In this document: piece after piece, positions 31,852 to 64,000 of the stretch
Layout of the letters: each line of letters opens with the position of its first letter
How positions within the stretch are numbered: position 1 is the stretch's first letter
Origin: Fidelibacterota bacterium
GTDB lineage: Bacteria; Fidelibacterota; UBA8477; JABMPR01
NCBI GenBank assembly: GCA_016784025.1
Contig: JADHVL010000006.1
Location: forward strand, 13,859 to 77,858
Direction: 5' to 3'
Length of the DNA: 64,000 nt
The notes under the pieces: generated by a model
Told to the model about the DNA's origin: nothing
The model's database searches: none
Seen by the model: only the letters and a program-made list of their open reading frames with translations
Position numbers and translations under genes: made by a program

Positions 31852-31865
31852 AAGAATGCAGATGC

Positions 31866-33971: not shown

Positions 33972-33976
33972 AGGAT

Positions 33977-35008: not shown

Positions 35009-35010
35009 AA

Positions 35011-36018
35011 ATGAGTCTAAGAAATCATTATATGAACATTTTGAGAATCCTGCTCATCCTTCCTCTCCTCAATGGCGGTCTGGCCATGGCTCAGATAAAA
35101 TTGGCTCAGTCTGGTGCTCAATTTTTAAGTGTTGATTCTGATGCCAAGGCCGGAGGTATGGCTGGAGCATTGACCACGGTTGAATCTAATTCTGCTTCAA
35201 TTTTCTTCAATCCGGCGGGAATGGCCAGAATGAATCCCAGCATTGACTTGATGGCCAGTCAGAATCAGTGGTTTGCAGATATCGCCTACAACTCCTTCTC
35301 CGCTGCCTTTAAACCAGGAACCGGTGAATTTGGTGTATTCGGACTGTCCTTTGTTTCAGTTGACTACGGAGAAATTCAGGGAACTCAGCGTTGGGACAAT
35401 GATCTGGGATATAAAGATACTGAGATACTCACACCTTCAGCGTTTGCTGCTGGATTTGGTTATGCCAAGTCTCTCAACGATAAGTTTTCAGTTGGTGCTC
35501 ATGTCAAGTACATCGGTCTTAATTATGGCAAGAGTATTTACCCCGATGATGATGGCAATCCTGATACGGTCAAGTCTCATCTGGCTTTCGCCAATGCTTT
35601 TGATTTTGGAACCATCTATAGGACTGGATGGAAGACGCTGGCTTTTGGTATGTCTGTGAAAAATTTCTCAAATGAAGTGGTTTTCGAAAAGGAAGGCTTT
35701 CAACTACCCCTGACCTTCACACTTGGCATATCAATGGATGCCTTTGAATTGGTGAGAAATGTCATGGGCCAGCAGATCATGTTAGTAAGCCTGGATGTGC
35801 TGCATTATCGCTCACACGCAGAGCAACTCAGAATTGGTTTTGAATACAAACCTATCGATATGCTTGCTCTACGAGCGGGATACATGTCTGCCAATGATGA
35901 GAATGATATTTCATTTGGTCTCGGAATCCAGCAATTCGGTCTTGCCTTTGATTATGCTTATGAGCCCTTCGGGCGCTTAGGCGATGTACAACGGATGACT
36001 GTCAGATTCTCTCTGTAA
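35011..36018 (+). CDS. PorV/PorQ-like outer-membrane beta-barrel (copy 1)
   Basis: 335 aa with a signal peptide. 'SGAQFLSVDSDAKAGGMAGALTTVESNSASIFFNPAGMA' matches the PorV/PorQ N-terminal signature (D-A-R/K-A-x-G-M-G...NPAG). It has alternating beta-strand character and a 'FDYAYEPFGRLGDVQRMTVRFSL' terminus. It is a paralog of 60356-61396. Confidence 0.65.
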   Translation: MSLRNHYMNILRILLILPLLNGGLAMAQIKLAQSGAQFLSVDSDAKAGGMAGALTTVESNSASIFFNPAGMARMNPSIDLMASQNQWFADIAYNSFSAAFKPGTGEFGVFGLSFVSVDYGEIQGTQRWDNDLGYKDTEILTPSAFAAGFGYAKSLNDKFSVGAHVKYIGLNYGKSIYPDDDGNPDTVKSHLAFANAFDFGTIYRTGWKTLAFGMSVKNFSNEVVFEKEGFQLPLTFTLGISMDAFELVRNVMGQQIMLVSLDVLHYRSHAEQLRIGFEYKPIDMLALRAGYMSANDENDISFGLGIQQFGLAFDYAYEPFGRLGDVQRMTVRFSL

Positions 36019-36036
36019 TGTGAGTGGTGGGGAGTA

Positions 36037-41081: not shown

Positions 41082-41100
41082 TCATCGGAGGTAACGTATT

Positions 41101-42354: not shown

Positions 42355-42458
42355 AGAAATTAGATATAATTAACAAAGATGTGCTATAAAGCAATGAATG
42401 TGAACTCACATAAATTATCTTTAGGCACAAAAAAAGACACAAGAAGAAGGAGAAAGAC

Positions 42459-43915: not shown

Positions 43916-44033
43916 ATTATTGACTGTAATTGTCCAATTTAAACTCAATTCTCTCATAGTTAGTATGCTAAATTTACTTACTTAAAGTGCATTCATGCTT
44001 ATCTTCATGGAGATTTATTAAAGGGAGGAAGAC

Positions 44034-47000: not shown

Positions 47001-47144
47001 TTGGAAATTCTGGTCAACGATAATCTTCCGGCTGGAAGGCATACGCTTCATTTTAATGGAAGTGATTTCGCTGCAGGCGTGTATATGGTTGTCCTGGAAA
47101 CCCAATTTGGCACCCAGGCCAAACGGATGCTATTGCTCAAATAA
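44034..47144 (+). CDS. T9SS-targeted multidomain protein: GHL10 (glycosyl-hydrolase-like 10 / DUF187) domain + 2 SbsA/Big_5-like Ig domains + jelly-roll (CBM-like) domain + CTD
   Basis: 1036 aa with a signal peptide. 'FRATWVITW...VLFQARQSGTAYYNSSYEPW...GYDPLEYAIEQAHARGLELHAWFN...DGLHLDYVRW' is GHL10-like. 'PPVLTSVYPAQDDTVEVS...' and 'GPTVLYSTPEINVG...' are Ig-like. CTD: 'LHQNYPNPFNPETVISFDL...VSVFDIRGRE...AGVYMVVL...MLLLK'. Confidence 0.7.
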   Translation: MRLKTIGIVLLLLVSMVWAQTDNEEFRATWVITWEHISAGSSVEQNQARIRTIMDNHLAANMSSVLFQARQSGTAYYNSSYEPWGAYAGGSSPGYDPLEYAIEQAHARGLELHAWFNCFQAASTVPGAPAAEHPDWVCRDEGGAPMPAYRALSPGMPEVREYLVDVAMEIVNNYDVDGLHLDYVRWNEYDNLLLNSVSPTSLEEVSTLDQETDYSHIGSLRDSQSGRYLYDIDHPYNGGVPAGFDSWPDFWRSSVTDFVHSLHDSMQTQKPWVRLSVAALGKYNWSGWNGYNVVYQDAALWFNEGYIDQLTPMHYHWTTSSGFVGMLTDDSPYCWGDYIQPGVNAGRLFSVGPGSYILDQNNIWNRHASIVNISRSVSWVDGFQFFSYGSWQDYQYWPTAGSSFFSKKTKIRGNGLFVDETPPTPAIALDIVDSLTFDLTVTPDNTATGDYWWALYRSQSDDIMVTSSDIVGVYFGSEAFTVTEEFDGTQDENTSYFYSATMLDRYWNESELATAVETSQLPSLPPVLTSVYPAQDDTVEVSTLLTIQFSKTMDVASVESSLSFSPEIAIDHYTWTEGDHRIIIYPDTNFAYMSSYTMTLTDAAMDINGSALDGDADGTAGGDIIITFHTKALDEAGPTVLYSTPEINVGTESFDVDGNISLVFDEMLNSSTVNLESIHLEEGGTPIEVDYLLSTAHGKSVLDIKPYSRIGAASDYLLTLDSTLADALGNTVDAQILIPFSTANEHYSTINYIDSFTFTNEWWDPEGSGSTVGTIGSTTNWGYSTSIYLPGTSTVQSQKRAGFINYEWDLASGSHLLREYMPSGGPRNVIFDNTYIMQCYVYGDGSNNKFRFAIDEGDGTDWPAHEVSVWFDIDWEGWRLLEWDFTDPSMVGNWIGNGTLDGQAYRVDSFQMTYNSESGATSGRIYLDNFRVVKKMPGVSIDDELPELPQTVSLHQNYPNPFNPETVISFDLPSSMEVEVSVFDIRGRELEILVNDNLPAGRHTLHFNGSDFAAGVYMVVLETQFGTQAKRMLLLK

Positions 47145-51743: not shown

Positions 51744-51850
51744 TTTTGTCCTCCTTTGTTGATTGACAATATTCACTCTCGATTAAATAAAAAGAATGGA
51801 TACATCTTAAGAGTGATCCATTCGTTTGTATGCCATTTGAAAGTGCCATA

Positions 51851-51879
51851 AATCTAGAGAGAACTCTGAGGGTTGACAA
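51851..51879 (-). promoter_or_regulatory. Putative promoter of the FG-GAP gene
   Basis: Minus strand: TTGTCA (rc of 51874-51879), a 17-nt spacer, then TAGATT (rc of 51851-51856). Confidence 0.4.
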
Positions 51880-51900: not shown

Positions 51901-51932
51901 TAGTTAGTTAATAATAGTAAGCTAACTAACTA
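51901..51932. promoter_or_regulatory. Perfect 10-bp inverted repeat (candidate operator) just upstream of the receptor-3 promoter
   Basis: TAGTTAGTTA (51901-51910), a 12-nt spacer, then TAACTAACTA (51923-51932). The right arm ends 6 nt before the -35 box. The spacer itself contains TAGTAAG. Confidence 0.45.
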
Positions 51933-51938
51933 AGATAG

Positions 51939-51967
51939 TTGACTTGTCTGCGGAAGGCGACTATAAT
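51939..51967 (+). promoter_or_regulatory. Near-consensus sigma70-type promoter for the 52019-61396 operon
   Basis: TTGACT (51939-51944), exactly 17 nt of spacer, then TATAAT (51962-51967). A GGGAGAG Shine-Dalgarno sits 5-11 nt before the ATG at 52019. Confidence 0.6.
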
Positions 51968-52018: not shown

Positions 52019-55000
52019 ATGAGTTCAGTGCTGGTAAATCTTCGTAGAACCATCCTTAACGTATTGATCCTAGTCTTAATCACCACCAATCTATTAGCAG
52101 GAACTACTGGAAAAATATCCGGTCGAGTAATTGATGCTGAAACTGGTGAAGGTCTAATTGGGGTGAATGTTATCGTCGAAAATACTGGTATGGGAGCCTC
52201 CACTGATAGCGAGGGAATCTACTTCATCATTAATGTACCAGTGGGCATATTTTCAGTTCGTGCCGGAATGATTGGATATACGACCCAGCTTATGACCGAA
52301 GTTTCTGTTCGTGGCGATTTAACCACTGAAATAAATTTTAACATGACAGTCCAGGTTCTTGAATCTGATCAGGAAGTCATTGTTGTTGCTGAACGCCCAA
52401 TGGTTCAAAAGGATTTAACCTCAGGTCGATCTATTGTGAGTGCCTCTGAAATGGCTGAAATGCCAGTTGAATCTCTGGCTGGTGTGATTGGCACCAAAGC
52501 TGGAATCGTAAGTGATGCAGGAGGAGCGATTCATATTCGAGGGGGACGTTCCAGCGAAGTAACCTATATGATTGATGGTGTACCTGTCACAAATCTCTCT
52601 TCAGGTGGGCTTGGAGTGGGACTTGAGACTAGCGCTGTTCAGGAACTCCAGATTCTAAGTGGAACTTTTAATGCTGAATATGGTCAAGCCATGTCTGGAA
52701 TTATTAATATCATTACCAAGGAAGGTGGCGAAAAATATTCTGGTAATCTCAGCGCTTATATGGGCGACTACTATACCGAAAATACCCGCTTTTTTGAACA
52801 TGCCGATGAATTCGATCCCTCAAACATAAAAAATGTTGAATTGAGCCTGTCAGGACCTGTTCCTGGTTTTGGAAAAAATTTAAACTTTTTTGCAAACGGT
52901 CGTTATTACGATTATGGGGGCTTGTATCGAGGGGTGCAAGAGTATAGCCCCAATGATGTGAACTATCTAACATCCAAGGCTGTGGAAGAATTGCGTGATT
53001 CACCCTGGGGTCGGGCAGGATTATTAAATTTTGCAGAACCATTCACAGATTTGAATGAAGATGGACAGCTGGAACCTGGTAGCGAATCATATTTTGATTT
53101 TGATGGGAATGGCTCTTTTACACTGGGTGAACCTTTTAGAGACATCAATGGAGATGGCCGTTACAACCACAATATTGATTTTAACCAGAATGGATACATT
53201 GATTCTGAAGACTGGGAGTTTGTTGATTTAAATGGTGATGGCGTTCTCACTGGAGACCCCTTCGTCGATGCCAACCATAATGGCATTTTGGATGGGGAAC
53301 CTTATATAGACTTTAATGGTAATCATATGTGGGATAGTGGTGCTTCTGGTGACTCCAGTATAGTCAGGATGAATACCTCTACTCGTGTTAATGGGATGCT
53401 CAAATTGACCTGGCGTATCTCTCCTAAGATGAAGCTGAACACCAGCATTATCCATAATTCAGCTCAATCACAAAGCTATTCCATGACAAATGGATTTGCG
53501 TATAAGTATAATCCTTCCGGCAGACCTACAAATCAGTCAACTTCCACCTCCATAATCATGGATCTACGACATTCATTAAACGAAAGAATGTTTTATAACA
53601 TTAAAGGTTCTTTCTACCAAACCACTGCAAAAACTTTTTACATCGATGTGGATCCAGAAGAGTTAAGTGAAGAAAAATCATTCACCTATACCGATATTTC
53701 CCAATGGGCTGATTTTCTATCCGATGCTGTTGCTGATCCCGTTTCGGGAATTGGAATGGGAAGCTATTATGGATCAGTAAGTGATTCTCTGCTCATATTA
53801 AAAAGTGATATGACTGTTTCCTTTTATGACAGCCTTTCCATCGGCGGTGACATGTTTTATGTGGAGGACTTCTTTGGTCAGAATACCTGGACTTTGGGGA
53901 TTACAAATACCTGGGAAGAAATGAGTGCACCTTCATGGATTGAAGCACTGACAACCCCTGGAATCACAGAATGGGTGAAACAGATTCGTTTTGAATTCGT
54001 AATCAATGATCTTAAAAAGGCTTACTTCTTGCCAAATGAAATTTCTGAGCAGCCAGTAAACGAATATCTGGCTGGCGGTCATAGTCACAGCTACTCCCAA
54101 AGAATCAACCGTACTTATCTCATGAGTGGAGATTTAACCTGGCAGATAAATAATACCCATCAATTCAAGGGTGGAGTGGGTTTCAAGACTCACTCAATGG
54201 CGTATAAGGCTTATACAGTATTTGTTCAGAAAAATCTCGATTGGGTACCTACCATCAAAGACACTGAATCAAGTTTTTCCAATGACTCATATGACAACTG
54301 GTTAACTGATGCGGTCTCAAAATTGTCCCTCAATACTCGCACACCCCGTGAGGCCTATGTCTATCTCCAGGACAAAATCGAACTTACAGATATGATTGTG
54401 AACATTGGTTTGCGTTATGATTATTTCGATCCAAACTATTTTGTCCCCAGCGATTACCGCGATCCCGAGAATCCAAAATATTGGATGTATACGCTTGCCA
54501 GCTCTGATTCTGCAAGAATTGATACTTTTTTCCAATTTGCAGGAGAAGTAACCGCTTTTGATCAAATTTTAGATACCCTGGATGCCAACGGTGAACCATG
54601 GCGGGATTATAATGGTTTTTATGAAGACACTGAACCTGTGCATCAGTTCTCACCCAGGATCGGTGTGGCATATCCCATCACCGATAAAGGTATCATCCAC
54701 TTTAGTTATGGACACTTTTTCCAGATACCAACCTTCAGTTATCTCTATTCAAATCCTGAGATGGAAATCAGTACGGCCAGTAATGAATCTCGACTGGGAA
54801 ATGCCAATCTGAAACCACAAAAAACGGTTACTTACGAAATTGGCTTGCAGCAAGAGCTGACATCTGATTTGGGGATTGAGATTATAGCATTTTATAAGGA
54901 CTTCTCAGGCCTCCTCAGCTTAGACCAATATGAAAAGTACAATACTGTCAGTTATATGGTTTACTCCAACAGGGACTACGGTGATACCCGTGGTATAACC

Positions 55001-55582
55001 TTCTCCATCAATAAACGTCGGACAGGGCTGCTCTCTGCTTCAGCTGATTATACTTATCTGGTAGCTCAGGGAAATGCTTCCGATCCACTCGCACTATTTT
55101 ACGCCAATCAAAGTGATCCGCCAGCTGAGGTCATAAAACAGGTATTACCCCTGAATTGGGATCAAACCCATACCATAAATGTGAATATATCCCTCTCTGA
55201 GCCACAGAAGTGGGGAGTATCAATCCTCACCAAATATGGATCTGGTTTGCCCTATACACCTACCTATCAGGGGAGCTCGCTAGATGCACCCAACTCAGAT
55301 AGAAAACCTGATTATTTCAATGTTGATATAAATATGCACAAAGATGTGGTAATTGCTGGTCTGCATTGGACCGTATTTGCCAAAATATATAATGCGCTTA
55401 ACATCCAGAATGAGAGAAGTGTTTTCTCCGATACTGGACGAGCAACCTACTCGTTAATCCCAACCTACACACCCGACAATGGAAACATATACGGAAGACA
55501 CTCGCTAACAGACTATTTGACACGTCCCACATACTTTAGCAGTCCTCGTCAGTTCCGAATCGGTTTCTCAACAAGTTTCTAG
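52019..55582 (+). CDS. TonB-dependent receptor-like outer-membrane protein 3 (CarboxypepD_reg + Plug + barrel with large Ca-binding-repeat insertion)
   Basis: 1187 aa. 'GKISGRVIDAETGEGLIGVNVIVENTG', TonB-box-like 'QEVIVVAERP', 'IHIRGGRSSEVTYMIDG', 'GTFNAEYGQAMSGIINIITKEG'. The insertion holds about 6 D/N-x-D/N-x-D/N-G loops. It ends '...GFSTSF'. Confidence 0.85.
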   Translation: MSSVLVNLRRTILNVLILVLITTNLLAGTTGKISGRVIDAETGEGLIGVNVIVENTGMGASTDSEGIYFIINVPVGIFSVRAGMIGYTTQLMTEVSVRGDLTTEINFNMTVQVLESDQEVIVVAERPMVQKDLTSGRSIVSASEMAEMPVESLAGVIGTKAGIVSDAGGAIHIRGGRSSEVTYMIDGVPVTNLSSGGLGVGLETSAVQELQILSGTFNAEYGQAMSGIINIITKEGGEKYSGNLSAYMGDYYTENTRFFEHADEFDPSNIKNVELSLSGPVPGFGKNLNFFANGRYYDYGGLYRGVQEYSPNDVNYLTSKAVEELRDSPWGRAGLLNFAEPFTDLNEDGQLEPGSESYFDFDGNGSFTLGEPFRDINGDGRYNHNIDFNQNGYIDSEDWEFVDLNGDGVLTGDPFVDANHNGILDGEPYIDFNGNHMWDSGASGDSSIVRMNTSTRVNGMLKLTWRISPKMKLNTSIIHNSAQSQSYSMTNGFAYKYNPSGRPTNQSTSTSIIMDLRHSLNERMFYNIKGSFYQTTAKTFYIDVDPEELSEEKSFTYTDISQWADFLSDAVADPVSGIGMGSYYGSVSDSLLILKSDMTVSFYDSLSIGGDMFYVEDFFGQNTWTLGITNTWEEMSAPSWIEALTTPGITEWVKQIRFEFVINDLKKAYFLPNEISEQPVNEYLAGGHSHSYSQRINRTYLMSGDLTWQINNTHQFKGGVGFKTHSMAYKAYTVFVQKNLDWVPTIKDTESSFSNDSYDNWLTDAVSKLSLNTRTPREAYVYLQDKIELTDMIVNIGLRYDYFDPNYFVPSDYRDPENPKYWMYTLASSDSARIDTFFQFAGEVTAFDQILDTLDANGEPWRDYNGFYEDTEPVHQFSPRIGVAYPITDKGIIHFSYGHFFQIPTFSYLYSNPEMEISTASNESRLGNANLKPQKTVTYEIGLQQELTSDLGIEIIAFYKDFSGLLSLDQYEKYNTVSYMVYSNRDYGDTRGITFSINKRRTGLLSASADYTYLVAQGNASDPLALFYANQSDPPAEVIKQVLPLNWDQTHTINVNISLSEPQKWGVSILTKYGSGLPYTPTYQGSSLDAPNSDRKPDYFNVDINMHKDVVIAGLHWTVFAKIYNALNIQNERSVFSDTGRATYSLIPTYTPDNGNIYGRHSLTDYLTRPTYFSSPRQFRIGFSTSF

Positions 55583-55595
55583 GAAGGTGTTGAAT

Positions 55596-58500
55596 ATGAA
55601 GAAGAATATTACCTTATTGCTCGCCTTCATCACCTTCATTGGTGTGCTGAACGCAGGATCAAATACAAATAATCCAGTCCCCGAAAACAAACTTGATCGG
55701 GCGGCTTGGTTGAAATACTACAACACGCTAGATCGACGCAACCACATGTCGAAAGCGTCTGCTCTCAGCGATCGCAAGGCTGGTACCCATAACGGAAATC
55801 GTGTCCGAACCCTGTTTTATAATTATGGTTCTATTGGACGCCCCAACACCGAGCCTTCCATGGAATGGCCCATTGGTTCTGGTCGTGGCTATGCCTTTGA
55901 GTTTGGTGTCGTCGCAGGTGCAAGAATCACCACCCATGGTGGCACATCTGATATCATCGTTAGTGATGGTCTCACTGTAGCAGGTGTTACCTATGATAAT
56001 AGCGGATTTGATAATAATCCCGGTGATTGGCAACCCCTGCCGGGTCATCACGATCCCTTCCAGTCATCCATCGCCATGAGCACCACTATTGATGACAACC
56101 GTGATGGGAAACCGGATTCGTGGCCCAGCAAATGGTTCAATCCAGCCTTCAACGACTTTATGTGGCCAGGTGAGTACGGCCAGGGTGTGACGACGGCAGA
56201 TCAGGAATCCTACTATGTAATGGATGACTTCTATATTAAGAGTCACAACACATATTGGCCACAACAAGGCTGGTCAGATTCACTAAGGGATGATGAATTT
56301 TACCCATCTTTTCCCATTGATACGGTAAGAGGTGGATTGGGTCTCCAGGTTGAATCACGCGGTTACCAATGGATCGCCACGCGAGCGCAAAATGTGATCT
56401 TCTTTGTATATGAATTAGAGAACGTAGGAAATGACACGCTGGACAATATGTACTTCGGAATGTACGGTGATCCCCATGTTGGCGGGGCATCGGACTACAA
56501 TGATGATGATGCCTATTTCGATACCTTTATTGATATTGTCTACGGCTGGGACGATAATGCCATCGGTGATCCAGTATTTGGTAACACCGTTCCAGGCTTC
56601 TTTGGTTATAAGTTTCTTGAATCACCAGGTGAACCTCGCGATGGCATTGACAATGATGATGATGGGATGATTGATGAATCTATGCAGGACGGCATCGATA
56701 ATGATGGTGACTGGCGTCCCTATTCAGATTGGAACCTTAGTAGTGAATGGGAACCAGGTGAACCAGTCAATGATGATTTAGGTACCGATGGTGTAGGTCC
56801 AGATGATGCCCAGTACGTCGCTCCTGATGTAGATGGTACTGAGGCAAATGGATTGCCTGATCCAGGGGAACCCAATTTTGATGAAAAAGACCTTGATGAA
56901 GCGGATCAGATAGGATTGACCGGATTTATCGTGGATCAATATGACAACAGTACTGAGACTGAAGATTACTATTATTCCAGTCGTCTCACTGCTCCAATTG
57001 ATACGGCAGCTTTCCAGCAACGGGCAGACAATATCTTTATGTACAGTTCAGGTCCAATTAAAATGGGTCCTGGTGATGTCCGTCGTTTTTCAATTGCCAT
57101 GCTATTTGGTTATAATATCAACGCAGCCACAGGTGAATACCTGTACGAAGACCCTCATAATACAAGGGACCTCTATGCTACAGCTGAAATTATGCAGGAA
57201 ATTTATGATGCAGGCTATCGTTTTGTTAAACCACCGAATAAGCCGCGCGTAACAGCTATTCCCGGTGACGGTCAGGTCACACTATATTGGGATGATGGCG
57301 CCGAACTTTCAAGAGACCCCCTTTATGGCAAGGATTTTGAGGGATATGCCATTTACCGGGCCACTGATTTTGGCTTTAATGAATCTTTGAATATTACCGA
57401 TACATATGGGAGTCCATACCTCTGGAATCCAATAGCCAAATTTGATCTGGATAACGGCTTATCAGGCCCTCATGAAGTGGAGCAGATTAAAAATTCCGGG
57501 CTTCATTTCGATATGGGTGCTAATTCAGGTCTTGTACACAGCTTTGTGGATAAAAACCTGGTCAATGGTCAGCGATATTTTTATGCGCTCTGTGCTTATG
57601 ACTCAGGATCAGCTATCGATACGATTCCACCTACTGAGACATCCAAAACAATCCAGGAAGATTTTGCAGGAAATGTCACCCTTGATATAAATACAGCAGT
57701 TGTGACACCTCAGGCACCATCAATTGGATATCTGCCTCCACAAATCACTGCAGTAGATGGCAGCGACGAACTACCTGGTACTGGAACCATTGATTTTAAA
57801 ATCATTGATCCGACGCAAATTCCAGATGGAAGAACCCTGGAACTTCGCTTTCTTGATTCAGGAATGGATGAAATTGATAATGATGGTGATTGGGATTCCT
57901 ATGCTGACATGGATCAGATAAGGGACAATGGGATATACGTTGATATGATTATCCCGGCCAGCGAGGATAGCATTATCTATTCCAGTACTTTAACTGAAAG
58001 AGTTGTACTCGAGGGTCTTGTGGGTAACGTTTTTGAGCACAATGGATTTGAGTGGGAAATCAAGACCTGGCTGGAAGGACCTACAATTACAACTGATACA
58101 GTAATTATCTATCCAGATGCTTTTGAAATTGGCCCCACCATGGATGTCTGGAACCCAGCCATCGATGGCAGTGTAAATGATGATGTGGGCTCAGATGGCT
58201 GTTCTGATGAATATGAGCTTGGTGGTGGCAACTGCTCTGAGGCAATAGTGGCGTCTCCTGGTGATGATCCAAATGGTGATAATTGGGATCCATTGACTAA
58301 TCCAGATGGAACCGAAGCCAATGGCAAACCAAATGCAGGTGAGCCAGATGTGGATTTAAGAGATTTTCAGGAACTGGTGATGGAAACTGAATCCTTCTCA
58401 ATCGTTGATGTCACCGATCCAGCAAATGAAATCCCATTCGTTGATACTCAATACGGGATTCATGGAGAGGATTTTAATCAGATAAGCAATGGGATTCAAG

Positions 58501-60344
58501 TTTTTGTAGAAAATGATACTCTCCAGCTGGACTACAGTCGACTAGGGTGGTCATCTGGAGATTGTATCTGGTCTCCTAATGCCAGAGTATATAGTGGGGG
58601 AACACCTGGTATTGCAATGCCTCTTGATTACCGTCTCGAATTCTTTGAAACTGTGGTGGATACCTCACTGAGTCTGGGTGCCTGGACGAGAACTCAATTT
58701 CAAATGACCTACAAAATCACAGATGTCCAAACTGGTGAGCGCAGGAATGTAATTGTTACGAGTCCTCAGGATTCAACCTTGCAGCCAACCAGTAAAATCA
58801 CCCCATTTCAGTACACCAATGAAGAGCAGACAGGGGATGAGATTGGCAGTGATTTGCTACCAACATGGGAATTCACTTTTCAATCACCAATCTCAAAAAT
58901 TGAGAGTCTCTATCCTCTTGAGGATGGTGTGATGATAGGAACTGCGGGCGAAGGTCTGGCAATTTACAATCAGGATACCAAGGGTTGGAAGTTTTGGAAT
59001 TTCTCCAATTCAGGTGGTGGTCTATTGTCCAGTGTTGGGATTAAGGACATCGTTTACCATGAAGGCCACTATTGGGTGGCTACCAATCGGGGACCAGCTC
59101 TATACGATGGAGAGATATGGAAACACCATCTTCAATTAGAAACTGTTTTTGACGAATGGGAAGATGATAAGAATGCTACACTGGAGAATCCTGATAATAC
59201 CAAGGATTATGCTGCCTGTGTAGCCATTGATGTTGACAGTGAAGGTGCCATATGGTTGGGTTCTGATACTCATGGTCTGGTCAGGGTGAACACGCGTGGC
59301 ACTTATTTGACCAGTTTTGATGATATCATTGAATACTACCCTGGACCTGACTCCTTGTCTGATTATTTAGAATCTTTGGCCGATACAGACTTAAATGATA
59401 TCATGGTGGATGATGATCTCGTTTGGATTGCCACGAATAAGGGTGTTATTTCCTACAATTATGTTGACACAGTTTGGACTCACTATCCCAAAGACAATGT
59501 GAATGGGCTCCAGAATGATGATATCTACGCCATTGATAAGTTACCCGAATCTCAAGGTGGAAATCTTGTATTTGGTACTGCAAAGGGTGTGGCTTTCATG
59601 GTTGATGATGCCTTTGTTGTGTACACGAAATCTGATAGCACGATTCCTAATAACAAGGTATATAGCTTATTCAATCGTGACACCGATGAATACTACCTGG
59701 GAACAGGTACAGGTTATGCGGTAATGGATCTTTCAAATGCATCAAGTGATTTTACATCTGGAATCACATTTGAAATCTTTTCAGCCAGTTGGGGTGATGA
59801 AACTATCTATAGTGATAAGAATGTTAAAGCCATCAACTTTTCAGGCGATATAGGATATTTTGGTACAGAAATAGGTGTGGAACAAAGACTCTCTGCCACT
59901 GAGTGGAACACCTTTAGTCCCCAACCTGGTGATGTCTTGAATATTTACACCCGTAAGGAATTCAGCTCACGGGATATCTATAGATATGAGACTACTGCAG
60001 CAAAAGAGGATGCAGAAAAGGTTGCTAATGAGCTTGGAAAAGTTGCAGTGGTTCCAAATCCTTACGTAGCCGCTGCCATTTGGGAGCAAAAACCCTATCT
60101 ACAGTCAGGACGAGGAGAGCGTAAGATCTTTTTCATCAATCTCCCAACAGACTGTACAATTCGAATTTACACCATGGCTGGAGAGTTGGTAAAAAAATTG
60201 GAACACCATGAGACTGTTTATAACGGCGCTCAATCCTGGGATCTTCTAAATCTGGACAATCTGGAGGTTGCCTACGGTGTTTACATCTACCACGTTGAAA
60301 CCGATAATGCAGAAACTATCGGCAAATTTGCCGTGATTAAATAA
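55596..60344 (+). CDS. Giant T9SS-CTD partner protein B (family core + acidic Ca-binding repeats + FN3-like + 7-blade Reg_prop-type beta-propeller + CTD)
   Basis: The start is moved to ATG 55596 (MKKNITLLLAF..., AGGAAGG SD) from the track's GTG at 55587. The family core 'LGLQVESRGYQWIATRAQNVIFFVYELENVG' and 'SGPIKMGPGDVRRFSIAM' aligns with A1/A2. Acidic repeats include 'GIDNDDDGMIDESMQDGIDNDGDW'. FN3-like: 'GYAIYRATDFG'. The seven propeller blades are 'IGTAGEGLAIYN / WVATNRGPALYD / IWLGSDTHGLVRVN / VWIATNKGVISYN ...'. CTD: 'VAVVPNPY...CTIRIYTMAGELVKKL...YGVYIYHVETDN'. Confidence 0.7.
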   Translation: MKKNITLLLAFITFIGVLNAGSNTNNPVPENKLDRAAWLKYYNTLDRRNHMSKASALSDRKAGTHNGNRVRTLFYNYGSIGRPNTEPSMEWPIGSGRGYAFEFGVVAGARITTHGGTSDIIVSDGLTVAGVTYDNSGFDNNPGDWQPLPGHHDPFQSSIAMSTTIDDNRDGKPDSWPSKWFNPAFNDFMWPGEYGQGVTTADQESYYVMDDFYIKSHNTYWPQQGWSDSLRDDEFYPSFPIDTVRGGLGLQVESRGYQWIATRAQNVIFFVYELENVGNDTLDNMYFGMYGDPHVGGASDYNDDDAYFDTFIDIVYGWDDNAIGDPVFGNTVPGFFGYKFLESPGEPRDGIDNDDDGMIDESMQDGIDNDGDWRPYSDWNLSSEWEPGEPVNDDLGTDGVGPDDAQYVAPDVDGTEANGLPDPGEPNFDEKDLDEADQIGLTGFIVDQYDNSTETEDYYYSSRLTAPIDTAAFQQRADNIFMYSSGPIKMGPGDVRRFSIAMLFGYNINAATGEYLYEDPHNTRDLYATAEIMQEIYDAGYRFVKPPNKPRVTAIPGDGQVTLYWDDGAELSRDPLYGKDFEGYAIYRATDFGFNESLNITDTYGSPYLWNPIAKFDLDNGLSGPHEVEQIKNSGLHFDMGANSGLVHSFVDKNLVNGQRYFYALCAYDSGSAIDTIPPTETSKTIQEDFAGNVTLDINTAVVTPQAPSIGYLPPQITAVDGSDELPGTGTIDFKIIDPTQIPDGRTLELRFLDSGMDEIDNDGDWDSYADMDQIRDNGIYVDMIIPASEDSIIYSSTLTERVVLEGLVGNVFEHNGFEWEIKTWLEGPTITTDTVIIYPDAFEIGPTMDVWNPAIDGSVNDDVGSDGCSDEYELGGGNCSEAIVASPGDDPNGDNWDPLTNPDGTEANGKPNAGEPDVDLRDFQELVMETESFSIVDVTDPANEIPFVDTQYGIHGEDFNQISNGIQVFVENDTLQLDYSRLGWSSGDCIWSPNARVYSGGTPGIAMPLDYRLEFFETVVDTSLSLGAWTRTQFQMTYKITDVQTGERRNVIVTSPQDSTLQPTSKITPFQYTNEEQTGDEIGSDLLPTWEFTFQSPISKIESLYPLEDGVMIGTAGEGLAIYNQDTKGWKFWNFSNSGGGLLSSVGIKDIVYHEGHYWVATNRGPALYDGEIWKHHLQLETVFDEWEDDKNATLENPDNTKDYAACVAIDVDSEGAIWLGSDTHGLVRVNTRGTYLTSFDDIIEYYPGPDSLSDYLESLADTDLNDIMVDDDLVWIATNKGVISYNYVDTVWTHYPKDNVNGLQNDDIYAIDKLPESQGGNLVFGTAKGVAFMVDDAFVVYTKSDSTIPNNKVYSLFNRDTDEYYLGTGTGYAVMDLSNASSDFTSGITFEIFSASWGDETIYSDKNVKAINFSGDIGYFGTEIGVEQRLSATEWNTFSPQPGDVLNIYTRKEFSSRDIYRYETTAAKEDAEKVANELGKVAVVPNPYVAAAIWEQKPYLQSGRGERKIFFINLPTDCTIRIYTMAGELVKKLEHHETVYNGAQSWDLLNLDNLEVAYGVYIYHVETDNAETIGKFAVIK

Positions 60345-60355
60345 GGAGATTGACC

Positions 60356-61396
60356 ATGTATAAGAAAATGATCATGCTCCTTGTAATTGCAGTTTCAATG
60401 AGCTTTGGACAGTACAAAGGTGGTACAACTGCAGCACAATTCCTCAAAATAGGTATTGGTAGCCGTGCAACTGGTATGGGCGAGGCATATGTCGCTATGA
60501 GTCAGGATGCCTCTGGACTCTATTGGAATCCGGCTGGTATAGCCCAGGCTGGTGGTGGCGAAATCATGTTCCTCAGAAACAATTGGATTGCCGATGTAGC
60601 CATCAATTATCTGGGTGTCATTTTTCCGCTCTATGGTGTTGGAACCGTTGGCATTAGTATCACCTCATTAACAATGGATGATATGCCGGTTACTACTGAG
60701 CTGGAACCCAATGGAACTGGTGAGGAATTTACCGCCAGTGATTTAGCCTTGCAAGTGACCCTGGCAAGATCGCTTACGGATAGATTTTCCATTGGATTTA
60801 ACGGAAAATATATCCAGCAGACCATCTGGCATAGCCGTGCCAGTGCCATGGCGGTTGATGTGGGTACCTTGTTTAGAACCCAGTTTAATGATATGCGTCT
60901 CGGCATGAGCATCTCCAATTATGGATCAGGTATGAGAATGTCTGGCCGGGATATTCTTGAGCGCTATGACCCAGCACCTGGCTTTGAAGGCAACAACGAT
61001 GCTATTCCTGTAGACTATGCTCTGGATGATTGGGATTTACCCCTCATCTTCCGGGTTGGGGTAGCCATGGACGTGATTGAATTGGGTGTGACTAAGTTGA
61101 CGGTAGCGGTGGATGCCATTCATCCCAATGATAATTATGAATCTATCAACATTGGTACCGAACTGAGCGTGTTGGATAAATACTTTCTTAGAGGAGGTTG
61201 GAAATCACCTTTCGTAGAGACCAACACCAGCCTGGCAGCATCCGAGCTGGAAACTCGCGAGGAAGGCTTCACATTTGGTGCAGGATTTGATCTACCAATT
61301 TTTGGATCAGCTTCAGGGTTGAGATTTGATTATGCGTATGCCGATTTCGGGCGATTGAATAATGTGCAAAGATTTAATCTGAGTCTGTATTTTTAA
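60356..61396 (+). CDS. PorV/PorQ-like outer-membrane beta-barrel (copy 2)
   Basis: The start is moved to ATG 60356 (MYKKMIMLL..., AAGGAG SD 7 nt upstream) from the track's TTG at 60350. 'TAAQFLKIGIGSRATGMGEAYVAMSQDASGLYWNPAGIA'. The terminus is 'RFDYAYADFGRLNNVQRFNLSLYF'. Confidence 0.65.
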   Translation: MYKKMIMLLVIAVSMSFGQYKGGTTAAQFLKIGIGSRATGMGEAYVAMSQDASGLYWNPAGIAQAGGGEIMFLRNNWIADVAINYLGVIFPLYGVGTVGISITSLTMDDMPVTTELEPNGTGEEFTASDLALQVTLARSLTDRFSIGFNGKYIQQTIWHSRASAMAVDVGTLFRTQFNDMRLGMSISNYGSGMRMSGRDILERYDPAPGFEGNNDAIPVDYALDDWDLPLIFRVGVAMDVIELGVTKLTVAVDAIHPNDNYESINIGTELSVLDKYFLRGGWKSPFVETNTSLAASELETREEGFTFGAGFDLPIFGSASGLRFDYAYADFGRLNNVQRFNLSLYF

Positions 61397-61435
61397 TGCA
61401 TTCCCGGATTACCTCTAGCTAGGTAAGAAGTACTC

Positions 61436-61485
61436 AAGGCACCTTTCCAATCTCCAGGGATTTCGAAGAGGTGCCTTTATTTTTT
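61436..61485 (+). terminator. Probable terminator after the PorV-like gene
   Basis: aaggcacct (61436-61444) pairs with aggtgcctt (61469-61477) and is followed by a T-rich run (tttatttttt). The loop is long (24 nt), hence the moderate confidence. Confidence 0.5.
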
Positions 61486-61524
61486 ATATAGGTTGTTAAC
61501 AGAAACAATTAAGGCGAGACTGGT

Positions 61525-64000
61525 ATGAAAAATCTATGTCGTATATCTCTGATTTTATTGATTGGGGCACAATTTCTCTTTTCAGGGACTTCAGGAAAAT
61601 TGACGGGTCGGGTGACCGATCAAAGTACAGGTGAAGCCCTTATTGGAGTAAATGTTTTTCTACCAGCCACCGGTCAGGGTGGCGCAACCGATTTAGATGG
61701 AAATTTCTACATACTGAACATCGCACCAGGTGAATATCAACTCCGCTGTTCCATGATTGGTTATTCAGAACAGGTCATCGACGGAATTCGGATAATGATT
61801 GATTTGACCACAACCCAGGATGTGCAGATGACGCTCAGCATTATTGAGGGAGACGTGGTCACCGTCACGGCAGACCGATCCATGATACAGGCTGATATTA
61901 CGCATGCACAGGCGAATATAAGTTCTGCCGAATTAGAAGCATTGCCTGTTGAGTCATTCCAGGCTGCAGTCTCACTACAGGCTGGTGTGGTTGTGGATGG
62001 TGCTGGAGCCATTCATATCAGGGGCGGACGCTCCTCTGAAGTCGCCTATTTGATCGATGGGATACCTGTGACCAACTCCTATGGTCAGAACATGGGTGTC
62101 GGCATCGAAAACAATGCGATTCAGGAACTTCAGGTCATTTCAGGAACATTTAATGCTGAATACGGCCAGGCCATGTCAGGTATTATCAATATTATTACCA
62201 AGGATGGAAGCTTGAGTGATTACTCTGGAGAGTTGAGCTACCGTTACGGTCGCTATATCTCAATGGATCCTGAAATATATCTTGGTATCATTCCAGGAGA
62301 TCTGGCTTTGAAAGATGATATCGATATTTCCAAGGTAGATATTTTCGGTACGAATCCAGATGTTTTTACACCCCAGGGCAGACATGATTTTCAATGGAGT
62401 ATGAGTGGTCCAGTACCAGGATTGTCAAAGAGTACGTCATTTTTCACCTCTGGAAGATATGAAGATTTAGCTGGTCGCCTGTATGGTGTACGACGTTTTA
62501 ATACAGATTCATTTTATTGGGATAACACCAATTCCATGCCCATCGAGAATGGTGAATACTTTTCTGACTATATTGATTATGGCGAGGATGGCTGTCCCGA
62601 TGAATATGAAAATGGGACAGGCGGCTGTGCCAGTGTACCCCTTAATCTTGGTGGTGACCCCAATGGAGACAATTGGGATTTCTATCTCAACCCCAACGGC
62701 GGAGAGGGCAATAATATCCGTGATGGAGGTGAATCGGGGAATGGTTTGTGGGATGGTGGCGATCGTGTATATCCGGTTGATCCTGATGTATATCTCGATA
62801 ATGCCACAGGTACCTGGTATCGTGATGTTGATGGAAATGGAGAATGGAACTCAGATGTAGATACAGATGTCGGTTTTCCACAATTCACCTATGAAGATGT
62901 CGATGGCAACGGAGCCTTGAGTGGGGAATGGTATTTTGATGGAGATCAAAACGGTGAATGGACCAATATGCGTGGTGACAACGCCGTGGTACCTCTCTAT
63001 AGCTCGAAGAGTCTTAATTTACAGGGCAAACTAACACACCGATTCTCACAACAATTGAAACTTTCTTTAAATGTCCTTTATGGAAGTTCCCAAACCTACA
63101 ACAGCAATGGCTTAAATTGGAAATATACTCCTGAGGGTCGAGCTACTTCCTATGGGACCAATATGAACATCGGTCTGGTGTTGCAGCATACCCTCAGCCC
63201 AGAGGCATTTTACAGTGTTAAAGCATCAATCCTGGGAAACTTTGGCCGATCCTATTATGAACCAATTTATGATGTAAACTGGAATCAGCTTTTTATGTCA
63301 AACATGTTCAATATCTCAGATTTTGACATGCCCGCTGATACTTCCTATGACACCAACAATCTGGAGGAATATGAGAATGACAATAACATTCTGGATGCCT
63401 CAATCGGTCAGAAATTTAATTTAGGTGGAATATCAAAATATCATCTTTATCGAATGACTCGCAGCCAGCTCATCAAATTTGATATGACCAATCAGGTAAA
63501 TAATATGCACCAGCTTCAGGGTGGTCTTGAATACAAATATACCAGCATTTTCCGTAGGGATTTTTCCATTATTTATGATCCTGCAGAAGGCTATTCCACC
63601 CCTCAAATCCTAACCCCAAATGTGAGTCCCTCAACACCAACTTACAGTGAGATGATTAAACATCCGTCTGAGTTTGCAGTCTATCTCCAGGATAAAATTG
63701 AAGTGGTTGATATGATTGTTAACGCAGGAATTCGATACGAAATATTTGATCCCGATGGTGTGACACCCTCAGATCCTGCAGATCCCAACCCCAGGTCTCC
63801 GCTAAAATTGATCAACAGATTCCATGATACAGATGGAGATGGTCAGATTTCAGAGGAAGAAGCAATAGATACCAATGCTAAAACCCTGGAAGATCGCATG
63901 GAGTACTGGTTCAAGGAAGCCTCAAAGAAGGTTCAGTTCAGCCCACGACTTGCTATGGCTTATCCCATCACAGATAAAGGTGTGTTGCATTTCTCCTATG
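61525..64000 (+). CDS. TonB-dependent receptor-like outer-membrane protein 4 (5' partial; runs off the window; absent from the ORF track)
   Basis: I translated frame 1 from ATG 61525 to 64000 by hand and found no stop. 'MKNLCRISLILLIGAQFLFSGTSGKLTGRVTDQSTGEALIGVNVFL', 'GDVVTVTADR', 'IHIRGGRSSEVAYLIDG' and 'GTFNAEYGQAMSGIINIITKDG' are collinear with receptor 3. The end '...FSPRLAMAYPITDKGVLHFSY' matches receptor 3 '...FSPRIGVAYPITDKGIIHFSY'. Confidence 0.85.
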   Translation, partial: MKNLCRISLILLIGAQFLFSGTSGKLTGRVTDQSTGEALIGVNVFLPATGQGGATDLDGNFYILNIAPGEYQLRCSMIGYSEQVIDGIRIMIDLTTTQDVQMTLSIIEGDVVTVTADRSMIQADITHAQANISSAELEALPVESFQAAVSLQAGVVVDGAGAIHIRGGRSSEVAYLIDGIPVTNSYGQNMGVGIENNAIQELQVISGTFNAEYGQAMSGIINIITKDGSLSDYSGELSYRYGRYISMDPEIYLGIIPGDLALKDDIDISKVDIFGTNPDVFTPQGRHDFQWSMSGPVPGLSKSTSFFTSGRYEDLAGRLYGVRRFNTDSFYWDNTNSMPIENGEYFSDYIDYGEDGCPDEYENGTGGCASVPLNLGGDPNGDNWDFYLNPNGGEGNNIRDGGESGNGLWDGGDRVYPVDPDVYLDNATGTWYRDVDGNGEWNSDVDTDVGFPQFTYEDVDGNGALSGEWYFDGDQNGEWTNMRGDNAVVPLYSSKSLNLQGKLTHRFSQQLKLSLNVLYGSSQTYNSNGLNWKYTPEGRATSYGTNMNIGLVLQHTLSPEAFYSVKASILGNFGRSYYEPIYDVNWNQLFMSNMFNISDFDMPADTSYDTNNLEEYENDNNILDASIGQKFNLGGISKYHLYRMTRSQLIKFDMTNQVNNMHQLQGGLEYKYTSIFRRDFSIIYDPAEGYSTPQILTPNVSPSTPTYSEMIKHPSEFAVYLQDKIEVVDMIVNAGIRYEIFDPDGVTPSDPADPNPRSPLKLINRFHDTDGDGQISEEEAIDTNAKTLEDRMEYWFKEASKKVQFSPRLAMAYPITDKGVLHFSY

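Follow-up and report, generated by a model that had tools for sequence, protein, structure and literature searches.

Three consecutive genes on the forward strand of the window (the whole stretch of DNA that was analyzed, 64,000 nucleotides, from a marine Marinimicrobia genome) encode a TonB-dependent transporter, a giant partner protein with a putative C-terminal sorting domain (CTD) for type IX secretion (T9SS), and an outer-membrane barrel of the PorV/PorQ family, here called the trio (Table 1). The preliminary description of this DNA had placed the three genes behind a single promoter, and every feature that it listed was present. The intergenic gaps were confirmed to be exactly 13 and 11 nt with the corrected starts: gene 2 starts at ATG 55596 and not at the first possible GTG (55587), and gene 3 starts at ATG 60356 and not at TTG 60350. 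Public gene calls on the source contig give identical starts for the trio genes. Both gaps contain a Shine-Dalgarno-like sequence, GGAAGG or AAGGAG. This layout may reflect translational coupling and stoichiometric co-production of the three proteins. Internal promoter or terminator signals within the three genes were considered and dropped, as promoter-like sites occur there at chance level (39 versus 37.1 expected) and terminator-like sites below it (5 versus 9.6 expected).

Table 1. Positions of the trio and of its flanking features in the window
Feature	Position	Strand	Remark
Promoter-like site TTGTCA-17-TAGATT of the divergent FG-GAP/CTD gene (48900-51776)	51851..51879	-	
Inverted repeat TAGTTAGTTA-N12-TAACTAACTA, perfect 10 bp	51901..51932	.	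100% complementary
Sigma-70-type promoter TTGACT-17-TATAAT (predicted)	51939..51967	+	11/12 match
Gene 1, TonB-dependent transporter	52019..55582	+	1187 aa
Gene 2, giant partner	55596..60344	+	1582 aa
Gene 3, PorV/PorQ-family outer-membrane barrel	60356..61396	+	346 aa
Long imperfect hairpin and T-run, intrinsic-terminator-like, possibly an attenuator	61436..61485	+	
Barrel 4, first gene of the paralogous second trio; runs off the window	61525..64000	+	1115 aa in source contig

The predicted promoter ahead of gene 1 was found where it had been described and has the joint best score in a 14-kb scan. Since promoter-like sites in the region are as frequent as expected by chance (besides the count given above, 7 versus 7.5 in a second count), the motif by itself proves nothing. 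Its conservation supports the assignment of this putative promoter. In an alignment of 11 Marinimicrobia loci whose PorV-like proteins are 58-97% identical, the -35 TTGAC is invariant (11/11), and by hand count, TTGAC(T/A)-17-TAT(A/T)NT is present in each of five loci (L002, L011, L012, L014, and L015), even though the remaining intergenic DNA has diverged.

The inverted repeat lies just 5' of the -35 hexamer, with its center near -58. Its half-site cores, TAGTT and AAC(T/A)AA, are kept in relatives, and the repeat is a probable binding site of a regulator, for which a ROK-family protein encoded in the window (12660-13910) and other local regulators are candidates. A reading of co-variation within the palindrome in L015 was withdrawn, as the match there is imperfect and only the half-site cores are conserved. 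Two blocks near the divergent promoter-like site, CTAGATT and CTTGTCAA, are also kept in the 11-locus alignment. An Rfam scan of the leader and the divergent region returned nothing except a single match at E 0.89, which argues against a riboswitch in this segment.

The hairpin and T-run that had been described after gene 3 were likewise recovered, the hairpin spanning 61436-61477 and TTTATTTTTT following it to 61485. The hairpin (-18.1 kcal/mol, z = -3.6) has the two marks of an intrinsic terminator, a stable stem and a U-run directly after it. Like the promoter, it is kept in the 11 related Marinimicrobia loci: a hairpin of different sequence stands at the equivalent place, with z between -3.3 and -5.9, and 5 of the 8 pairs of the hairpin consensus show compensatory changes.

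The start of barrel 4 at 61525 was also confirmed. Past position 64000, the source contig continues after barrel 4 with the gene of a second giant partner (1594 aa) and then a PorV-like gene of 346 aa. This outcome favors the preliminary description, which had proposed to look there for exactly such a pair and would have been contradicted by unrelated genes. Identity between the two trios, which hold the third and fourth sets of these genes (B3/B4, P3/P4, and V3/V4), amounts to 35-43% for the TonB barrels, 35% for the partners, and 46% for the PorV-like proteins, and judged from these comparisons, the whole trio is duplicated as a unit. The genes downstream of the two trios encode a 383-aa protein, a CTD protein, and a PD40 protein.

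Domain composition of the three proteins

The product of gene 1 consists of a signal peptide, a CarboxypepD_reg-like N-terminal domain (PF13715, 57.8 bits), a plug (PF07715, 36.8 bits; cut-off 23.9), and a beta-barrel (PF00593, 95.6 bits; cut-off 27), all three Pfam matches being above cut-off. The combination of plug and barrel domains identifies it as a TonB-dependent transporter. A TonB-box-like stretch, EVIVVAER, can be located by eye at residues ~118-125, between the N-terminal domain and the plug. The protein scores below the cut-off of the SusC/RagA family model TIGR04056 (67.9 versus 368.25 bits), and the match is confined to its N-terminal 234 residues.

The partner carries a Sec signal peptide that lacks a lipobox cysteine, so another anchor is needed. 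Its residues 1-752 comprise a family-wide beta-sandwich domain and FN3, residues ~753-1440 form a clade-specific insert with a Reg_prop-type beta-propeller, and the conserved residues 1441-1582 end in a type-A-like T9SS CTD. The family to which it belongs comprises ~1,600 clusters at E<=1e-30, is unnamed, and is now annotated as hypothetical. Sequence and profile searches of Pfam, NCBIfam, and the PDB returned only weak matches to Reg_prop, the PorZ propeller, and CTDs.

The C-terminus of the partner aligns as a type-A CTD, with the motifs VVPNPY, IRIYT..GELV, GVYIYH, and GKFAVIK. It scores 19.7 bits on TIGR04183, just under the cut-off of 23, and gives no match to PF18962. Compared with the PDB, the CTD profile gave two weak matches and no others, PorU (E 0.02) and PorZ (E 0.17), in both cases at the CTD. 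Within the T9SS, CTD retention is known for these two proteins, whose CTDs remain bound to PorV and PorQ, respectively (PMC10202324). The AF2 model of the partner places a beta-sandwich at the C-terminus. A divergent type-A CTD with a 15-residue insert is in line with the motifs, the weak PDB matches, and the beta-sandwich predicted at the terminus. No other part of the module is as well conserved as the CTD, which has a mean pairwise identity of 0.60; the PorV-like barrel reaches 0.50, the partner N-domain 0.46, and the TonB barrel 0.45. Such conservation would be unexpected if the CTD were a signal that is simply cut off. Two other proteins in the window (42459-43865 and 44034-47144) score above CTD cut-offs, indirect evidence that the organism uses the T9SS sorting route; the product of the minus-strand gene at 48900-51776 has a weak precomputed match to Por_Secre_tail.

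With respect to fold, the C-terminal half of the partner is closest to the periplasmic domains with which hybrid two-component systems of Bacteroides sense glycans (E 4e-14) and to PorZ (E 5.6e-14). The N-terminal half shows FN3 and weak fold matches to GH94 and GH116 proteins, which on the model we read as matches to the beta-sandwich domains of these enzymes. With so poor a fold match (TM ~0.25), the predicted role of the N-domain in binding, as opposed to catalysis, is tentative.

Gene 3 belongs to the PorV/PorQ family, scoring 203.3 bits on NF033709 (cut-off 90) and 34.8 bits on PF19572 (cut-off 27), and its family profile matches the solved PorV structure 6h3i at E 4e-24. It lies below the equivalog models of both PorV proper (NF033710, 65 versus 250 bits) and PorQ proper (NF033711, 88.6 versus 220 bits). 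A mirror-tree comparison of CTD, PorV-like, and barrel distances across 49 trios detected no specific co-evolution of the CTD with the PorV-like protein, the correlation for this pair (r = 0.64) being lower than for the others.

Conservation and genomic neighborhood

Sampling centered on the PorV-like gene covered 83 homologues in 76 genomes from many phyla. The partner gene is directly upstream of the PorV-like gene in 78 of the 83 cases, and a TonB barrel precedes the partner in 53 of the 56 loci with enough upstream DNA; the three exceptions are split partner genes. These counts bear out the proposal in the preliminary description that barrel, CTD-bearing partner, and PorV-like protein form a conserved core. 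Sampling centered on the partner gave the same order of the three genes. Junctions within the trio are tight (median ~14 nt), while those at its edges are loose (~100 nt) or divergent. A largely unrelated family of ~700-aa partners, which we call P1-type, occurs in the same order between TonB barrel and PorV-like gene, and its members share the CTD type of the giant partner, minus the short insert. At least three partner/PorV-like pairs are present on the source contig.

In other phyla, the trio is found next to genes for an ABC sugar-binding protein with permeases and for GH130 and GH94 phosphorylases, and elsewhere next to an SSF symporter, a ROK protein, and GH94. The neighborhood in other phyla also includes a Reg_prop/Y_Y_Y sensor kinase, encoded upstream. 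No carbohydrate-active enzyme or sugar transporter adjoins either of the two trios in the Marinimicrobia locus, and the substrate there could be something other than a glycan.

The lipoproteins and the propeller protein of a further locus type in the window had been regarded as accessories to the core. This view holds for the lipoprotein encoded between the partner and the PorV-like gene, which has 343 aa here and 193 aa in Calditrichota and is absent from Melioribacteraceae, but not for the pair formed by a TIG lipoprotein and an SGL-propeller CTD protein, which all three lineages sampled (Marinimicrobia here, Calditrichota, and Melioribacteraceae) retain in this type of locus. Our search of the literature accessible without subscription found no published description of the trio.

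Proposed function

We think it probable that the trio is an uptake module akin to SusCD, with the partner exported by the T9SS and retained by a PorV-like barrel of its own. The gene 1 product would provide the TonB-dependent import channel of this nutrient-capture module in the outer membrane. The partner is predicted to cross the inner membrane via Sec and the outer membrane via the T9SS, directed by its CTD. The gene 3 barrel would then bind the CTD and hold the partner at the cell surface beside the transporter, an anchoring modeled on PorQ holding PorZ and on SprF-type barrels serving SprB-type cargo, and we infer a physical association of both proteins with the transporter. Through its beta-sandwich, FN3, and propeller, the partner may capture a polymer as its substrate, a glycan being the likeliest, and hand it to the TonB barrel, thus standing in functionally for the SusD-type lipoprotein of Bacteroidota. 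Transcription would proceed from the conserved sigma-70-type promoter, with the palindromic site just upstream, and the hairpin after gene 3 probably lowers, rather than abolishes, transcription into the second trio.

Other readings of the same proteins have to be weighed against this module. The PorV-like barrel could be a dedicated shuttle from the T9SS translocon, in which case the CTD would be cleaved, the partner attached to LPS or released, and the transporter would gain only indirectly. Canonical PorV does shuttle cargo with a cleavable type-A CTD (reviews including PMC10202324), the partner CTD is type-A-like, and the mirror-tree result is in keeping with such a shuttle; yet the strong conservation of the CTD, the pairing of each partner paralogue with its own PorV-like paralogue, and the restriction of the PDB matches, weak as they are, to PorU and PorZ, whose CTDs are retained, make a shuttle unlikely. 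We hold it to be quite unlikely that the partner is a surface enzyme (a glycoside hydrolase, lyase, or peptidase) cutting polymers ahead of the transporter and not a binding or lid protein. The many invariant Asp, Glu, and His residues of the N-terminal domain would suit an enzyme, as would its weak fold matches, all of them to carbohydrate-active proteins (GH94, GH116, and dextran dextrinase). However, many of the invariant Asp residues sit in DxDxDG-type calcium-binding repeats, the matches are taken to be the beta-sandwich domains of those enzymes, the model is nearly all beta-strand with no helix-rich region seen of the kind that a catalytic (alpha/alpha)6 barrel needs, and the Pfam, NCBIfam, and PDB sequence searches matched the partner to no enzyme family. 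Lastly, genes 2 and 3 might be the PorZ and PorQ of this organism, core parts of T9SS attachment encoded next to a TonB receptor by chance. PorZ does rank among the top fold matches of the C-terminal half of the partner, and gene 3 scores slightly better on the PorQ than on the PorV model (88.6 versus 65 bits). Nevertheless, the equivalog scores are far under their cut-offs: the PorQ score compares with a threshold of 220, and the PorZ model NF052228 (cut-off 260) does not match the 1582-aa partner P3 and matches partners P1 and P2 over their last 65-94 residues only (19 and 17 bits). The presence of several partner/PorV-like pairs on a single contig, the conserved 750-aa N-domain, which has no counterpart in PorZ, and the constant TonB barrel and link to sugar uptake are also unfit for a housekeeping secretion component. 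On copy number, equivalog scores, and the extra 750-aa domain, we rejected this highly improbable assignment.

The uptake module can be combined with more than one reading of the transcription unit. The preliminary description had called the trio self-contained, a term that holds only in part, as the second trio has no recognizable promoter of its own and may need read-through. Promoter 51939 could therefore drive a longer operon composed of both trios and downstream genes, with the hairpin acting as an internal attenuator or as an mRNA-stabilizing element. The ATG of barrel 4 comes just 39 nt after the T-run, a consensus scan of 61000-61530 found no sigma-70-like site with at least 8/12 matches, and no hairpin follows the second trio, where the next gene begins 52 nt on. 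Taken together, these features suggest that the hairpin may attenuate a longer operon. In the same direction, the T-run is absent after the hairpin in L008 and L009, a hairpin again lies ~20 nt before the next barrel ATG in L012, and in other phyla further genes often follow the trio at 0-30 nt. Against the longer operon, the hairpin in the window has a good U-tract, and a promoter for another sigma factor, or one within the last part of gene 3, could escape a consensus scan. We consider the case for the longer operon to be evenly balanced.

The uncultured Marinimicrobia (SAR406) and their relatives are abundant in the dark ocean and in sediments, where they degrade organic matter, and their polymer uptake is poorly understood because the SusD marker for uptake loci is absent. 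The trio looks like an undescribed counterpart of Bacteroides SusC/SusD in many related phyla. More tentatively, we suggest that the main polymer-uptake machine of the non-Bacteroidia FCB phyla (Marinimicrobia, KSB1, Calditrichota, Ignavibacteria, Gemmatimonadota, WOR-3, and others) might have three parts: a TonB barrel, a giant partner exported by the T9SS, and a PorV-like barrel that keeps a permanent hold on the uncleaved CTD and docks the partner onto the transporter. If true, this would be a SusD-independent solution in which the T9SS and the barrels of the PorV family take on a second role, a structural one, in the import of nutrients. The known uses of these barrels and of the sorting domain, which lie in secretion and gliding, would then extend to building an import machine. 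It would also assign a function to a partner family of ~1,600 diverse clusters. The signature of the trio (TonB barrel, partner from one of the two unnamed families, and PorV-like barrel) would reveal such loci in thousands of metagenome-assembled genomes.

Comparison with known systems

Like the trio, SusC/SusD (RagA/RagB) systems combine a TonB barrel that has a CarboxypepD_reg-like extension and a plug with an immediately adjacent gene for a surface partner. They too are multiplied in tandem and have glycan enzymes, inner-membrane sugar transporters, and sensor regulators nearby. Unlike in SusC/SusD, the barrel of the trio fails the SusC cut-off (67.9 versus 368 bits), the next gene lacks a SusD Pfam domain and encodes a non-lipoprotein of 1100-1600 aa with a T9SS sorting domain, and there is an obligatory third gene, the PorV-like barrel. 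TbpA/TbpB of Neisseria similarly pairs a TonB barrel with a separately exported, ligand-capturing surface partner, but there the partner is a lipoprotein that Slam flips, and neither a T9SS nor a PorV-like barrel is involved. We know of no sequence relationship between TbpA/TbpB and the trio.

A published gene table contains a similar arrangement, which we liken to the trio by its descriptions, not by sequences. In the xylan locus of Rhodothermus marinus, Rmar_1070-1072 encode a TonB-dependent receptor, a hypothetical protein with a Por sorting domain, and another hypothetical protein; the first two genes are predicted to be co-transcribed along with xylanases, and the authors left these genes without interpretation (PMC6987092).

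The PorZ-PorQ and PorU-PorV pairs of Porphyromonas gingivalis offer a precedent for a T9SS substrate that keeps its CTD and is held at the surface by a 14-strand barrel of the PorV family (PMC10202324), and the propeller and CTD half of the trio partner resembles PorZ in fold. These pairs differ from the trio in being single-copy secretion parts with no link to a TonB transporter; the equivalog models of PorZ, PorQ, and PorV do not recognize the trio proteins, for which CTD retention is assumed. In Flavobacterium, SprB and other type-B CTD cargo require an adjacent PorP/SprF-like barrel that serves that cargo only (PMC10202324). The CTD of the trio is type-A-like and not type B, its barrel scores with the PorV/PorQ family, and its cargo is coupled to a transporter, whereas SprB is coupled to gliding motility; in both systems, the gene of a giant surface protein is followed directly by that of its cognate PorV-like barrel.

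Gene content and synteny of the three-gene unit

The preliminary description had placed a promoter, three genes with gaps of 13 and 11 nt, a hairpin and the start of barrel 4 in and around 52019-61396, and all of these are present (table). The three genes, hereafter the trio, encode a TonB-dependent transporter (gene 1, barrel 3), a giant partner (gene 2) and a PorV-like barrel (gene 3). The gaps follow from the ATG starts, which are also those called in the public source record; a Shine-Dalgarno-like GGAAGG or AAGGAG lies in each gap. Gene 1 combines plug and barrel with a CarboxypepD_reg-like N-terminal domain, all three above the Pfam cut-off, and fails the curated SusC model (67.9 versus 368 bits). 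Gene 3 belongs to the PorV/PorQ family (NF033709, 203 bits, cut-off 90) and falls below the cut-offs of the equivalog models specific for PorV and for PorQ; its family profile matches the solved Flavobacterium PorV (E 4e-24).

[quoted passage not shown]
Feature	Position	Strand	Remarks
Divergent promoter-like site for minus-strand CTD gene	51879-51851	-	also conserved
Perfect 10-bp inverted repeat, TAGTTAGTTA-N12-TAACTAACTA	51901-51932		just upstream of trio promoter
Sigma-70-type promoter, TTGACT-17-TATAAT	51939-51967	+	11/12 match
Gene 1, TonB-dependent transporter	52019-55582		same strand as genes 2 and 3
Gene 2, giant partner, 1582 aa	55596-60344		ATG; earliest possible start GTG 55587
Gene 2, N-terminal region	residues 1-752		conserved, 50% identity to 1114-aa homologue
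Gene 2, middle	residues ~753-1440		variable; long only in this Marinimicrobia clade
Gene 2, C-terminal region	residues 1441-1582		conserved, 53% identity to 1114-aa homologue
Acidic module, partner	58158-58370		partner residues 855-925
Acidic module, barrel 4	12188-12400 of Marinimicrobia locus L002		barrel 4 residues 340-410
Gene 3, PorV-like barrel	60356-61396		ATG; earliest possible start TTG 60350
Long imperfect hairpin	61436-61477		after gene 3 stop; then TTTATTTTTT
Barrel 4	starts 61525		

The genes following barrel 4 had been named as a test of the trio as a unit. They lie beyond the window and were read from contig JADHUN010000006.1 (GCA_016784505.1, a Candidatus Marinimicrobia/Neomarinimicrobiota MAG), which is identical to the window over the shared part. 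Barrel 4 (1115 aa) is followed there by a 1594-aa partner and then a 346-aa PorV-like gene, so the trio is repeated in tandem (trio 2). Identities between the two trios are 35-43% for the barrels, 35% for the partners and 46% for the PorV-like proteins, and separate orthologues of both types occur in other Marinimicrobia. By these comparisons, the two trios are paralogues of old date that arose by duplication of the whole unit.

For synteny, we took 76 loci from a genome-collection scan using the PorV-like alignment, called their ORFs anew and scored them by HMMs built from the window's proteins. As labelled, the loci come from Neomarinimicrobiota, KSB1, Calditrichota, Gemmatimonadota, Ignavibacteria/Melioribacteraceae, WOR-3, Stahlbacteria, Delongbacteria, Zhuqueibacterota and others. 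Of the 83 PorV-like genes that have an upstream neighbour, 78 are immediately preceded, on the same strand, by a partner-family gene. Where a second neighbour is present, a TonB barrel precedes the partner in 53 of 56 cases, the three exceptions being partner genes split in two. Partner-centred look-ups gave the same gene order. These counts bear out the proposal that barrel, CTD partner and PorV-like gene form the core unit. Packing is tight and operon-like across phyla, with a median gap of ~14 nt within trios versus ~100 nt to flanking same-strand genes. The gene upstream of the trio is often divergent, and tandem double trios are common in the sampled loci.

Some deposited names are odd. 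Two loci 58-87% identical to the window trio (L009 and L015) were deposited as 'uncultured Lentisphaeria', several 'Cytophagia' MAGs carry KSB1/Calditrichota-like loci, and the PorV/PorQ homologue P0095 is labelled 'Methanosarcinaceae archaeon'. These names probably reflect errors of binning or labelling in public MAGs.

The string at 28585-43865 is built on a separate partner family, P1/P2 (~700 aa; 710+ homologues, named 'hypothetical' or 'fibronectin'), which has no Pfam domain and only an FN3-like part and the CTD in common with the giant partner. Its order is barrel, ~700-aa partner, optional small gene, PorV-like, barrel, partner, TIG lipoprotein and SGL-propeller CTD protein. The entire string is kept in the loci L086 and L087, from Calditrichota and Melioribacteraceae. 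The order in Calditrichota GD2 is barrel, partner, 193-aa gene, PorV-like, TIG, SGL/CTD, barrel, partner; in Melioribacteraceae it is Reg_prop/Y_Y_Y sensor kinase, response regulator, barrel, partner, PorV-like, barrel, partner, TIG, SGL/CTD. The lipoproteins and propeller protein had been taken for accessories. This holds for the small lipoprotein encoded between the partner and PorV-like genes, which is variable, but not for the TIG and SGL-propeller pair, which, judged by gene order, is a conserved feature of this locus type. That two partner families follow an identical three-gene logic strengthens the general architecture.

The trio frequently sits within sugar-uptake neighbourhoods. Downstream of it, Melioribacteraceae carry a sugar-binding protein, an ABC permease and a GH130, and WOR-3 carries a GH94 beyond ORFs of ABC-transporter size (a label based on size only). 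Another MAG has a CBM9 protein upstream and an SSF symporter, ROK and GH94 downstream, and a further MAG has GHL10 upstream. Elsewhere in the window, 8134-11118 (minus strand) encodes a 994-aa fusion of GH3 glycosidase N- and C-domains with a beta-lactamase-family domain, and 539-1816 encodes a Fibrobacter succinogenes major paralogous domain protein (PF09603, E 1e-43) in a Marinimicrobia genome.

Promoter, hairpin and transcription unit

The trio promoter has the joint top score in a 14-kb scan. Promoter-like motifs in that scan numbered 39 versus 37.1 in shuffles, and TTGAC-N16-18-TANNNT occurred 7 times in the whole window versus 7.5 expected. Since these counts are at chance, the motif by itself is no evidence, and the evidence lies in its conservation. 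Across 11 aligned Marinimicrobia loci (PorV-like protein 58-97% identical to the window's), the -35 TTGAC is unchanged, and TTGAC(T/A)-17-TAT(A/T)NT, with spacing counted by hand, is found in L002, L011, L012, L014 and L015. The surrounding intergenic DNA is mostly unalignable in distant loci, yet the promoter site is kept. Judged by this conservation, the predicted promoter is real. The half-site cores of the inverted repeat at 51901-51932 are also kept in the alignment, and this repeat is likely a regulator site.

Related AT-rich palindromes with TAGT(T/A)A and T(A/T)ACTA half-sites lie at ~28349-28376, 12533-12559 and ~43955-43985, upstream of barrel 1, a ROK-family gene (12660-13910) and a GHL10/CTD gene (44034), respectively; a ROK gene is also found within the trio locus of another MAG (L085). 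The palindromes may represent a common regulator site, though spacing varies among them. An imperfect inverted repeat of 19 nt (51790-51827, 79% complementary, adjacent arms), kept in close relatives only, lies in the leader of the minus-strand FG-GAP/CTD gene.

A hairpin follows gene 3 in every relative, its sequence differing each time. Individual folds have z = -3.3 to -5.9, and 5 of the 8 consensus pairs show compensatory changes; on this covariation, we consider the predicted hairpin real. The U-run is good in the window and missing in L008 and L009.

The trio had been called self-contained. Against this, the barrel 4 start codon comes only 39 nt after the T-run, and no sigma-70-like site of at least 8/12 was found in 61000-61530. 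The equivalent hairpin of L012 likewise lies ~20 nt before the next barrel, and nothing terminator-like follows trio 2, where the next gene is 52 nt downstream. The trio is probably not fully isolated as a transcription unit. On the simplest reading there is one promoter, and the hairpin serves to reduce expression of trio 2 or to stabilise the message upstream of it; we hold this about even with a self-contained trio. The observation in the preliminary description is confirmed and its interpretation partly supported: the core unit and the expected genes after barrel 4 are borne out, and 'self-contained' and 'accessories' hold only with qualification.

In Marinimicrobia, a conserved same-strand gene set follows the trio(s) (L014 11199-16818; L002 from 20419). 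It encodes a 383-aa protein with a weak WD40-like match, a ~725-aa protein that combines FlgD_ig with a Por sorting tail, a ~396-aa protein without match and a PD40 beta-propeller protein, and may belong to the trio operon.

The giant partner and its C-terminal domain

The gene 2 product begins with a Sec signal peptide that lacks a lipobox cysteine. No Pfam family scores above threshold on it, and sequence and profile searches of the PDB gave no match. A word-indexed search returned >3,200 homologues, every one named 'hypothetical', and a profile search run exhaustively over 1.84 billion cluster representatives returned 1,623 at E<=1e-30 and 4,967 at E<=1e-10. Comparison with a 1114-aa homologue divides the protein into three parts (table).

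The AlphaFold model of residues 1-760 (pLDDT 75, pTM 0.75) is mostly beta-strand followed by an FN3-like domain, with acidic DxDxDG-type stretches at low confidence. Foldseek gave weak matches (TM ~0.25, E 1e-4) to GH94, GH116, dextran dextrinase and FN3 domains. We read the enzyme matches of this model as matches to their beta-sandwich domains; with a fold match so weak, there is still room for catalysis by the partner. The model of residues 740-1582 (pLDDT 83) has a beta-propeller region of high confidence and ends in a beta-sandwich. Its top Foldseek matches are BT3049, BT4663 and BT4673 (E 4e-14), glycan-sensing periplasmic domains of Bacteroides hybrid two-component systems, and PorZ (E 5.6e-14). 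Barrel 4 and both giant partners share a ~55-residue cysteine-containing acidic module (~51% identity; DGCxDEYE..C..GDDPNGDNW..NPNG), absent from barrel 3 and of low confidence in the partner model. It could, for example, be a common element for calcium binding or docking.

Over its last ~100 residues, the partner aligns as a T9SS sorting domain of type A and carries the motifs VVPNPY, IRIYT..GELV, W(D/N)LL, GVYIYH and GKFAVIK; TIGR04183 scores 19.7 bits, slightly below the cut-off of 23. Against the PDB, the CTD profile matches only the CTDs of PorU (E 0.02) and PorZ (E 0.17), both weakly. These two CTDs remain uncleaved, bound to PorV and PorQ (PMC10202324). The CTD is the best-conserved segment of the module (mean pairwise identity 0.60 versus 0.45-0.50 elsewhere), with 58% mean column identity across phyla in the partner-family alignment (A5; window 59892-60344 and homologues). 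After the PNPY motif it carries a 15-residue insert, WEPKPxxxSGRGERK, which P1/P2-type CTDs lack.

Proposed working and relation to known systems

We propose that the partner would be exported by Sec and then by the T9SS via its CTD. By analogy with PorZ-PorQ, PorU-PorV and SprB-SprF, the adjacent PorV-like barrel would bind this CTD and hold the partner on the surface. There, the partner would capture polymer and feed the TonB barrel, the role of SusD and surface glycan-binding proteins in Bacteroidota. Retention through the CTD is favoured by the partner having no lipid anchor, by the CTD being the most conserved segment and by each partner paralogue having its own barrel paralogue. A mirror-tree comparison gave no signal, which counts against retention; the partner CTD score under the curated cut-off and the absence of sugar genes adjoining trios 3 and 4 in the window's genome also weigh against the proposal.

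Full-text literature searches found no description of the trio. In Rhodothermus marinus the same gene order is tabulated as unexplained hypothetical proteins (PMC6987092), a likeness by gene order alone. The trio would work like a SusC/SusD pair, but it has neither the SusC model score nor the adjacent SusD lipoprotein that define such pairs. With PorZ-PorQ and SprB-SprF it has the cargo-plus-cognate-barrel logic in common, and it is neither system. We class it with a kind already known, TonB-dependent uptake with a surface partner; it has an uncharacterised partner family, and the use of a PorV-family barrel in such uptake is new.
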